NCBI GenBank assembly: GCA_944331955.1
Contig: CALVIY010000005.1
Location: forward strand, 1-57,573
From: an uncultured Bacilli bacterium
GTDB taxonomy: Bacteria; Bacillota_I; Bacilli_A; RF39; UBA660
DNA: 57,573 nt
Direction: 5' to 3'
Shown: one piece after another, positions 52,723 to 53,503 of the stretch
Layout of the letters: every line of letters begins with the position of its first letter
Numbering within the stretch: position 1 is the first letter of the stretch
Position numbers and translations under genes: made by a program
The notes under the pieces: generated by a model
The model's database searches: none
What the model saw: the letters and a program-made list of their open reading frames with translations, nothing else
Told to the model about the DNA's origin: nothing

Positions 52723-52784
52723 AAAAATTAGCTTTATGCATTAAAATTCTTGATTATTAACTAATATTAATGTATATTATTTGT

Positions 52785-52843
52785 AGAAGAAGTGGATATA
52801 ACACCTCGGTATAATGCTGGGGCATCCACTTCTTTTAATTTTT
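52785..52843 (+). ncRNA. small hairpin RNA cassette 1
   Basis: Promoter TTGATT-17-TATATT (52750-52778), 6 nt, then AGAAGAAGTGGAT...ATCCACTTCTT stem with inner stem CCTCGGTA/TGCTGGGG, T-rich tail. Confidence 0.65.
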
Positions 52844-52881
52844 CCTTGCATATAATCTGCAAATGATGATATATTGTCAAT

Positions 52882-52945
52882 AGAAGAGGTGGTTATTTTA
52901 TTCTGTTACTTCTTGTAACGGGATTAACACCTCTTTAATTTTTTT
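52882..52945 (+). ncRNA. small hairpin RNA cassette 2
   Basis: Promoter TTGCAT-18-TATATT (52846-52875), 6 nt, AGAAGAGGTG...CACCTCTT stem, inner ATTCTGTTAC/GTAACGGGAT, T-rich tail. Confidence 0.6.
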
Positions 52946-52972
52946 AAATTTTACTTGCATATCATTTAGTAC

Positions 52973-53503
52973 TTATGATATATTAATAACAGAAGAGGTG
53001 GATATCATACTTCGGTTTAATGCTGGAGCATCCACTTCTTTTAATTTTGTATTATATATAAAATAATTATTATCTTTTTCAAGCACATCAATATTAACAG
53101 AATAAAAACAATTATTACATTTAATAATTTTGTTAAAATAATGCCATCTATTATTTTTATGATGTCTTTTTTGATGTTCTTTGCTCTCAGCTTTTGAATA
53201 ATTATAAGACGTATTCGATATCATATCAATATAATTACCACTAAAGGCAATATTTTGTCTAGCATTATATGACTTTTTTGTTTCATATTTTCCTGAATGC
53301 TGATATGCCCTAAAATTCCTTCTAGTTTTTTGGTTAATCAAAGCCTTTATCTCTTCCCCATTCAGAAGATAAGATATTTCCTTGCCCTGATACTCTTGTT
53401 TAAAGAGTTCATTTATATACTCTTCCCTTTCTTTCCTAGTATATTTGTCTAAATTTTCATCAAGCTCATATACTTCTATCGAGCCAACTTTTTTCATGCT
53501 CAT
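52973..53503 (-). CDS. basic hypothetical protein, putative LPD3/BECR-fold RNase
   Basis: GAGGAGG RBS; C-terminal WHYF...I.....Y.V.IDV......Y...LKE beta-meander pattern recalls LPD3/BECR domains (by eye). Confidence 0.55.
   Translation of the reverse strand: MSMKKVGSIEVYELDENLDKYTRKEREEYINELFKQEYQGKEISYLLNGEEIKALINQKTRRNFRAYQHSGKYETKKSYNARQNIAFSGNYIDMISNTSYNYSKAESKEHQKRHHKNNRWHYFNKIIKCNNCFYSVNIDVLEKDNNYFIYNTKLKEVDAPALNRSMISTSSVINIS
52991..53048 (+). ncRNA. small hairpin RNA cassette 3, antisense to the 3' end of 52973-53503
   Basis: Promoter TTGCAT-18-TATATT (52955-52984), 6 nt, 52/58 identical to cassette 1. Confidence 0.65.

Follow-up and report, generated by a model that had tools for sequence, protein, structure and literature searches.

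Enterococcus par/Fst is a type I toxin-antitoxin pair in which the antitoxin RNA overlaps the 3' end of the toxin gene. Two other pairs with a 3'-overlapping antitoxin RNA, bsrG/SR4 (PMC3834814) and yonT/SR6 (PMC5848175), have been described in Bacillus subtilis. We analyzed a locus that resembles these pairs in a DNA stretch of 57,573 nucleotides from an uncultured Bacilli bacterium (contig CALVIY010000005.1, contig 5 of a 1.5-Mb, 94%-complete genome), and we refer to this whole stretch as the window. Here, the gene of a 176-amino acid (aa) protein consisting of an LPD3 domain carries within its 3' end, on the opposite strand, a short RNA gene with its own promoter and hairpin (the cognate unit), and two further RNA cassettes of the same plan that have no gene of their own (the orphan units) lie beside it. 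As in the type I pairs, the RNA is convergent, structured and complementary to the 3' end of the mRNA, it has its own promoter and terminator hairpin, and gene and RNA appear to move together as a minimal module. The layout is the classical 3'-overlapping convergent geometry of type I systems, a likeness that an earlier note on this DNA underplayed. Our preferred explanation, to which we give about an even chance of being right, is that the locus is a type I-like pair in which a cis-antisense RNA represses LPD3, and beside which orphan antisense genes have accumulated.

The locus also departs from the type I pairs. The known type I toxins are hydrophobic peptides of less than 60 aa, whereas the partner here is a 176-aa LPD3 domain, and the RNA is much shorter (approximately 58 nt), lies wholly within the coding sequence and also occurs in RNA-only orphan arrays. 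A promoter-bearing antisense RNA gene that overlaps the mRNA is seen in the sequence of all homologue loci; a small hydrophobic toxic peptide is not, the protein being an alpha/beta domain. Because the larger partner and the RNA-only orphan arrays set it apart, we liken the locus to type I systems and do not count it as a member. Discrimination between antitoxins is a feature of the Sib/Ibs pairs. It is also found in ZorO-OrzO (PMC3919570), a repeated type I locus. As in these 2 systems, related antisense RNA genes stand here in tandem or in repeats, and a few differing positions could set their specificity. However, Sib/Ibs and ZorO-OrzO have a full toxin gene in every repeat, whereas here the gene goes with the last unit only and the other units retain approximately 24 tail codons.

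Type III systems, such as ToxIN and AbiQ/antiQ (reviewed in PMC4147584), share with this locus the tandem short structured RNA units beside a candidate nuclease and the defence-rich neighbourhood. The repeats of type III systems are near-identical, lie upstream of the toxin gene and share one promoter with it, whereas the units described here have their own promoters and terminators, face the gene and have differing cores. In fact, the repeats are 78–82% alike with 2 cores, and no ToxN-type family is among the Pfam matches of the locus at E <= 1. The locus is not a CRISPR array either, since its unit is a promoter and RNA cassette of approximately 100 bp, and there is no repeat-spacer pattern. 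The earlier note had concluded that the geometry fits neither type III nor CRISPR, and the own promoters of the units, their orientation towards the gene and the missing repeat-spacer pattern bear this out. Genes for contact-dependent inhibition (CDI) and Rhs genes have orphan toxin-tip/immunity arrays downstream. In these arrays, as would be the case here, the 3' ends of earlier alleles have been displaced and collect downstream, each with a protective partner. In CDI and Rhs this partner is a protein immunity gene and a toxin domain is what has been displaced, whereas the locus in the window would have an RNA as its protective partner, and the piece displaced is a disordered tail.

Iyer et al. 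(2017, PMC5512222) described LPD3 (PF18798) as a domain of polyvalent proteins from phages and conjugative elements. Profile and fold both identify the domain in the window as LPD3, but here it stands alone and is chromosomal. The available text of that paper does not mention an antisense RNA tie for LPD3. We found no published description of this arrangement when searching for LPD3, convergent type I pairs, Sib-type discrimination, and tandem or orphan RNA antitoxins, although Table S1 and File S2 of Iyer et al. may say more. Other literature matches to "LPD3" by word start concern LPD38 or LPD39 and were discarded.

Structure and conservation of the RNA cassettes

The 3 cassettes, of approximately 100 bp each, occupy positions 52750–53050 of the + strand, and each of them consists of a -35/-10 promoter, exactly 6 nt, a hairpin RNA of approximately 58 nt and a U-tract (Table 1). 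All 3 RNAs begin with A-G-A-A-G-A. The fold of the unit 1 RNA comprises an outer stem of 13 bp, a 5' bulge of 6 nt and an inner stem-loop of 7–8 bp, followed by a UUUUAAUUUU tail. Units 1 and 3 differ at 6 of 58 positions, which include a C-G to T-A change at positions 21/37 and an A-T to G-T change at positions 7/46. The -35 box of unit 3 lies just beyond the LPD3 stop codon, its -10 box within codons N-I of the LPD3 tail, and its RNA is wholly antisense to LPD3 codons ~153–171, within the last ~24 codons of the gene. The folding energies of units 1 to 3 on the + strand are -23.8, -23.3, and -21.6 kcal/mol (z -4.6, -6.3, and -4.7 against shuffled controls, respectively), and the folds of the - strand are weaker (-17.1, -13.2, and -12.2 kcal/mol).

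We compared the window with 14 syntenic loci of other genomes of the genus and 2 metagenome contigs, which resulted in a set of 17 loci and 50 units, with 2–5 cassettes per locus. The -10 box is TATATT in 49 of the 50 units and TATGTT in the remaining one, it is TG-extended in all 35 internal units, and the 6-nt gap between the -10 box and the RNA start is invariant. The leftmost promoter, that of unit 1, adjoins the divergent response-regulator gene and is near-identical across all related loci; promoter spacers and inner stems show free variation among units. By their cores, the units belong to class A (sub-types A1–A4), in which the antisense reading is the LPD3 tail KLKEVDA..ISTSS..NI(S/H), or to class B (B1 and B2), the core of which differs from that of class A. 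Unit 2 of the window is of the latter kind and has outer-stem ends as in class A.

The paired structure is supported by covariation. In 30 class-A units, 96.6% of the cells are paired, and both partners have changed in 6 of the 21 pairs, of which 5 belong to the 8-pair inner helix. Neither the class-A pairing nor the covariation score was reached in any of 500 shuffles, and pairing dropped to 41–57% when the partners were slid. Two compensatory pairs were found among the 14 class-B units. Importantly, several near-invariant G-U pairs (among them column 22/36, UG in 25 of 25 rows, and column 24/34, GU in 22 of 25) form only on the + strand, and the covariance model scored unit 1 with 86.6 bits on the + strand and 24.0 on the - strand, and unit 3 with 83.9 and 20.8 bits, respectively. 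The near-invariant G-U pairs together with this strand bias indicate that the selected structure is that of the RNA on the strand antisense to the gene. The earlier note had read the locus as 3 cassettes of promoter, 6 nt and hairpin, with unit 3 and its -10 box antisense within the last codons of the 176-aa open reading frame (ORF). The coordinates, the boxes, the 6 differences in 58 and the compensatory pair given there are all correct. Its view of the cassettes as independently promoted, structured RNA genes of the + strand is supported by the 50 units of the 17 loci, by covariation and by the covariance model (84–87 against 21–24 bits). The G-U pairs indeed work on the + strand only, as seen in the conserved columns and the weaker - strand folds, and in homologues the spacing of promoter and hairpin is conserved and the number of cassettes variable (2–5), two points that it had named for checking.

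None of the 4227 Rfam families matches the locus at gathering score; the best rows below threshold are tsr33, with 27.8 bits against a cut-off of 109, and ctRNA_pT181, with 23.1 and 21.8 bits against a cut-off of 56. In a family-wide sample, the RNA model matched 21 of 151 genomes at E <= 0.01, the best match outside the genome of the window reaching 39.4 bits over 30–58 nt. We rejected these matches as true units and treated them as ordinary hairpins. The module with its orphan array would be a new covariation-supported small RNA family if the orphan cassettes are active, and the cassette, if active, would be a compact natural promoter-hairpin-terminator part. In the outer stem (52785–52797 with 52824–52836 in unit 1, and the same arms in units 2 and 3) a purine-rich arm pairs with a pyrimidine-rich arm, which recalls Shine-Dalgarno pairing; a 16S gene whose 3' end could be compared with this stem was not found in the genome of the window or in G433.

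Table 1. Positions of the RNA units, the LPD3 gene and adjoining features in the window
Feature	Position	Strand	Details
Response-regulator gene, OmpR-type	52030–52722	-	Divergent from unit 1; borders the array on the left in all related loci
Unit 1 promoter	52750–52778	+	-35 TTGATT 52750–52755; 17-nt spacer; -10 TATATT 52773–52778
Unit 1 RNA, class A2, orphan	52785–52843	+	5' A at 52785, 6 nt past -10
Unit 1 antisense reading			...KLKEVDAPALYRGVISTSSTNNIH, then stop
Unit 2 promoter	52846–52875	+	TTGCAT 52846–52851; 18-nt spacer; TG-extended TATATT 52870–52875
Unit 2 RNA, class B1, orphan	52882–52945	+	5' A at 52882, 6 nt past -10
Unit 2 antisense reading			KIKEVLIPLQEVTE, then stop
Unit 3 promoter	52955–52984	+	TTGCAT 52955–52960; 18-nt spacer; TG-extended TATATT 52979–52984
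Unit 3 RNA, class A1, cognate	52991–53048	+	5' A at 52991, 6 nt past -10
Stand-alone LPD3-domain gene, 176 aa	52973–53503	-	ORF
Fourth promoter, hairpin and U-run element	53638–53720	+	TTGACA; 17 nt; TG-extended TATATT; divergent from LPD3

Linkage of gene and RNA, and origin of the orphan units

LPD3 of this subfamily is present in 17 of the 52 genomes of the genus and in none of 400 other genomes sampled from the family. RNA units are found in 24 of the 52 genomes, including, with high scores, all 17 that have LPD3, and in the related loci the last cassette always lies antisense within the LPD3 3' end. LPD3 homologues with 51–66% identity occur in at least 4 other neighbourhoods, and each of them keeps one antisense promoter, hairpin and U-tract at its 3' end. 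These neighbourhoods include sortase/pilin, ABC transporter, and MatE/aldo-keto reductase genes, and the units of the distant homologues fold with z -6.1, -4.4, -4.5, and -2.4. In homologues of 210 and 226 aa the protein extends past the hairpin; the antisense promoter lies within the coding extension, where -35 box, spacing and extended -10 box are kept, and in the outer stem a G-C pair is replaced by A-U. The inner part differs in L023 and L024, and the overall plan is unchanged. Because distant homologues in other contexts retain the unit, gene and RNA form one module, and because the overlap is kept across contexts, at a cost to the protein's disordered tail, complementarity to the mRNA is likely to matter. 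That a stand-alone LPD3 is always shadowed by a dedicated antisense RNA suggests that its dose must be tightly held down.

We also searched for the locus in mobile elements. Neither blastn of the array against phages nor tblastn of LPD3 against phages and plasmids gave a match, in single-sequence searches that would miss distant forms. In IMG/VR, none of 148 candidate stretches from a protein-pattern scan was confirmed and the hairpin pattern had 0 matches, both being exact-pattern searches that would also miss distant forms. These searches thus gave no evidence for phage-carried targets or copies.

To judge from their antisense readings, the orphan cassettes upstream are 3' tails displaced from other LPD3 alleles, as the earlier note had suggested for units 1 and 2. 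The antisense reading of unit 1 is identical to the tail of homologue P0004 (24 of 24 residues), and that of unit 2, if one frameshift is allowed, is similar to the tail of P0030, a homologue of 200 aa. Sub-types A3 and A4 serve as the cognate unit of some genomes and occur as orphans elsewhere; throughout the 17 loci, A2, B1, and B2 occur only as orphans, and in 16 of these loci there is no orphan of the cognate's own type. Between genomes, the flanks are 90–95% identical and LPD3 with the array 75–88%. In 4 of the 17 genomes of the genus LPD3 is disrupted, and the units there still score 79–86 bits. Taken from sequence comparison, this is the pattern of a locus that turns over fast, in which allele bodies would be swapped or lost and RNA-bearing tails left behind.

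An alternative is that the orphans are inert recombination debris, that only the cognate unit, or none, is functional, and that the hairpins do no more than terminate transcription. Variation in the number and order of units is what any tandem repeat shows, and with flanks 90–95% identical the genus is so closely related that remnants could be young. Still, all 33 orphan units keep the -10 box (TATATT in 32, TATGTT in one) and the 6-nt spacing, and their stems pair as well as cognate stems (class A, unpaired positions of 21: 0.53 in orphan versus 0.88 in cognate units). There is no + strand gene upstream for a terminator to act on, because the regulator gene is divergent, and the decayed units that exist for comparison occur only where LPD3 is absent. 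We therefore regard inert debris as very unlikely. Because their promoters and stems are intact, the orphans are probably expressed, and if active they would be RNA regulators that are collected and shuffled like protein immunity genes.

The LPD3 protein and the proposed mechanism

The single 176-aa sequence matches the Pfam LPD3 profile with 14 bits and E 0.06, below the cut-off of 27, over profile positions 3–114 of 114. A profile of 19 homologues (alignment A1) matched 320 proteins at E <= 0.001 and 133 at E <= 1e-10, many of which are polyvalent proteins of 1000–5000 aa. Eight of the profile matches were scanned and Pfam LPD3 was present in 4, on the matched stretch in P0070 and P0074 and elsewhere in 2 more. 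Fold searches with a first structure model were uninformative (predicted local distance difference test, pLDDT, 64) and this model was discarded. The model built from 48 diverse homologues (pLDDT 85.8) is an alpha/beta domain. With this model, the BFVD structure search returned 11 matches at E <= 0.001, including LPD3-named phage proteins (template modelling score, TM, by query 0.49–0.63), and the Atlas search an LPD3-named cluster at TM 0.74. From the profile matches to polyvalent proteins, the 48-homologue model and the BFVD and Atlas matches, we conclude that the 176-aa protein is a stand-alone LPD3 domain. LPD3 is widely found in the giant polyvalent proteins that phages and conjugative elements carry, and its pairing with an antisense RNA gives a direct experiment for LPD3 function.

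In the model, the folded domain comprises approximately residues 1–160, and pLDDT is below 50 for the last 11 residues, 166–176, which are encoded by the unit 3 hairpin and -10 box. This low pLDDT, together with the end of the Pfam match at residue 150 and the absence of the tail from the distant homologues P0024 and P0028, indicates that the LPD3 tail is predicted to lie outside the fold.

The earlier note had proposed a BECR/LPD3-like RNase. Its LPD3 part holds by profile, BFVD and Atlas, and a BECR/RNase fold is hinted at only weakly by the model. Foldseek with the LPD3 model found no match in the PDB at E <= 0.001, and a profile search (A4) of PDB sequences had 0 matches at E <= 10. In a wide structural search with VIA, where Z < 8 may mean a mere common arrangement, the best row was the CDI toxin chain 6cp9_A (Z 4.9, 101 aligned, root-mean-square deviation 3.5), with Nsp15 following at Z 4.2 and chains of RelE, BrnT, and colicin D at Z 2.9–3.4, scattered among NTF2-like folds. 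We take all these chains to be BECR members. In the 48 diverse homologues K125 is invariant and E10, G40, H114, and Y122 are conserved in at least 90%, which would be compatible with a putative active site and is no proof of one.

The RNase-toxin chains among the weak top structural rows (6cp9_A at Z 4.9, the others at Z 2.9–4.2) bear on a second explanation, namely that the RNAs bind and neutralise, or are processed by, LPD3 protein variants in a type III-like manner, the protein's hypervariable middle part reading the variable bulge and inner stem-loop. An outer stem that is constant, combined with an inner stem and bulge that vary, has the look of a specificity module, and codons 65–144 are the most variable part of LPD3 (amino acid identity 0.40–0.68 versus 0.82–0.95 for codons 1–64). 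However, the fold matches are below the tool's meaningful level, the LPD3 protein has no ToxN/AbiQ-type match in Pfam, and the units are not co-transcribed upstream repeats. Moreover, an RNA that binds protein could sit anywhere and has no need of the overlap, which is nevertheless kept in every homologue context seen. Because of this persistent overlap we rank the antisense model first, above protein binding, which we consider distinctly unlikely.

In the antisense model, the LPD3 gene and the unit 3 RNA would be a two-part module and units 1 and 2 its leftovers. Transcription of the unit 3 RNA would start from an extended -10 promoter of its own, on the opposite strand, and stop at its own hairpin and U-tract. 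The RNA would then meet the hairpin of the LPD3 mRNA to which it is complementary, probably through contact between the loops, and form a duplex with this mRNA, which would be cut or blocked, so that LPD3 protein would stay low while the RNA is made. Orphans may be left when alleles are swapped or gene bodies deleted, through recombination between the conserved promoter, outer-stem and terminator segments, and they could serve either as additional antisense RNAs that match the resident mRNA in part or as repressors already in place for other LPD3 alleles. Transcription, mRNA pairing and repression, as well as any toxicity of LPD3, are steps that we infer. The disruption of LPD3 in 4 of the 17 genomes and the occurrence of the module in several neighbourhoods are indirect hints, and no more, that the protein may be toxic and its synthesis blocked by the RNA. 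As far as sequence comparison can tell, the locus looks like a new RNA-based way to check a possibly harmful gene.

Several observations weigh against this explanation. LPD3 is a 176-aa soluble-looking domain, unlike the small hydrophobic toxins of type I systems, and neither PADLOC nor PHROGs has a match for the protein. In the available text of Iyer et al. (PMC5512222), LPD3 is assigned no function and is not among the 7 potentially enzymatic LPDs. Synonymous-site conservation is 0.86 in the tail and 0.80 in the gene body, a slight excess and a weak signal. Between positions 52000 and 54200 of the window we counted 17 promoter-like hexamers, where 18.2 +/- 3.5 are expected from shuffles, and a terminator scan of the same region called no terminator. 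Because the hexamers of a single window are not above chance, the case for real promoters rests on the comparison with other genomes. Contigs from 4 metatranscriptome runs of one study (X1–X4) span gene and array in related strains (52300–53800), but they are unstranded, carry neither ends nor level, and could come from DNA carry-over; their breaks at the repeats are expected from assembly. The orphans could equally act on an LPD3 read-through transcript. Finally, intact units stand beside abiD in 2 genomes without LPD3 (G401 and G444, see below), and the units are thus not strictly LPD3-dependent.

A stronger form of the antisense model, in which the array is an RNA orphan immunity, would have each cassette repress one LPD3 allele and guard the cell against transferred variants, LPD3 being toxic and possibly an RNase-like effector. 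We hold this form to be unlikely. If true, it would be the first stockpile of RNA antitoxins and the first functional handle on LPD3.

The variable slot beside the regulator gene

Seven genomes of the genus have an RNA match and no LPD3 match, and 2 of the 7 matches are at contig ends and uninformative. In G401, G435, and G444, AbiD replaces the LPD3 body (Pfam Abi_2 E 1.8e-40; PADLOC AbiD 4.6e-48) and is accompanied by a viperin-like radical S-adenosylmethionine (SAM)/SPASM gene, which is fragmented in G444. The deletion edge in these abiD loci is in or just past the U-tract of the last unit. By comparison of these sequences, the slot between the regulator gene and a PNPOx-like gene is a small defence-gene swap point, and the AbiD/viperin-like exchange marks it as a minor hot spot of defence genes in a gut lineage that has received little study. 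In the relatives without LPD3 L046, L048, and L050, AbiD and radical-SAM/SPASM genes occupy the slot equivalent to positions 53050–53640 of the window.

Decayed units are seen only where LPD3 is absent. G420, G436, and G402 have no intact copy of either LPD3 or abiD, and their units show visible degeneration, G402 being without any RNA match, and G427 has the regulator gene and no units. This decay gradient indicates that the units are tied to the variable genes rather than to the regulator. Their link with LPD3 is nevertheless not an absolute one, given the intact units beside abiD.

The same loci bear on a third explanation, in which the array, by way of several strong opposing promoters and perfectly complementary RNAs, would stop or destroy minus-strand read-through from LPD3 and so insulate the regulator operon, no unit being an orphan. 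LPD3 has no obvious terminator before the response-regulator operon, the array always lies between LPD3 and the regulator gene, units are found in 24 of the 28 genus genomes with a regulator orthologue, and where LPD3 has been lost the regulator gene still has a unit beside it. Also in line with insulation, the minus-strand hairpins are weaker and lack a U-tract. On the other hand, distant LPD3 homologues have the unit without such a regulator downstream, and the regulator of G427 stands without units. The degenerate units of G402, G420, and G436, where no source of read-through is left, fit insulation too, but they show that the regulator itself does not need the units. Insulation also leaves unexplained why the arrays are made of different types rather than of copies. 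We judge that it has little chance of being the right account, and we retain the antisense model.

A fourth element with promoter, hairpin and U-run lies on the far side of the LPD3 gene (Table 1). In the abiD loci this element is the promoter and leader directly upstream of abiD, and in the window and 9 other LPD3 loci it has an intact TTGACA-17-TATATT promoter and no gene behind it. Its hairpin (53673–53722) folds no better than shuffles (z -0.99), and the corresponding hairpin of G420 shows paired changes.

Other genes near the slot differ in their constancy. A UvrD-type helicase gene (666 aa) that overlaps the gene of a 184-aa GreA/GreB C-terminal-domain protein (54609–57081, - strand) forms a pair that stands beside the slot in all related loci. 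The 434-aa gene at 49533–50837 (- strand) encodes a helix-turn-helix (HTH) and a calcineurin-like phosphoesterase domain, with weak CasR/CARF-type HTH matches in PADLOC and a DNA-repair-exonuclease match in PHROGs. It is an insertion, being absent from L009, L010, L012, L016, and L021, and a different insert is found in L014, L015, L017, and L019. The only Rfam matches in the window are a T-box leader (18113–18356, - strand, 135.6 bits) and a tRNA gene (26733–26806, + strand).

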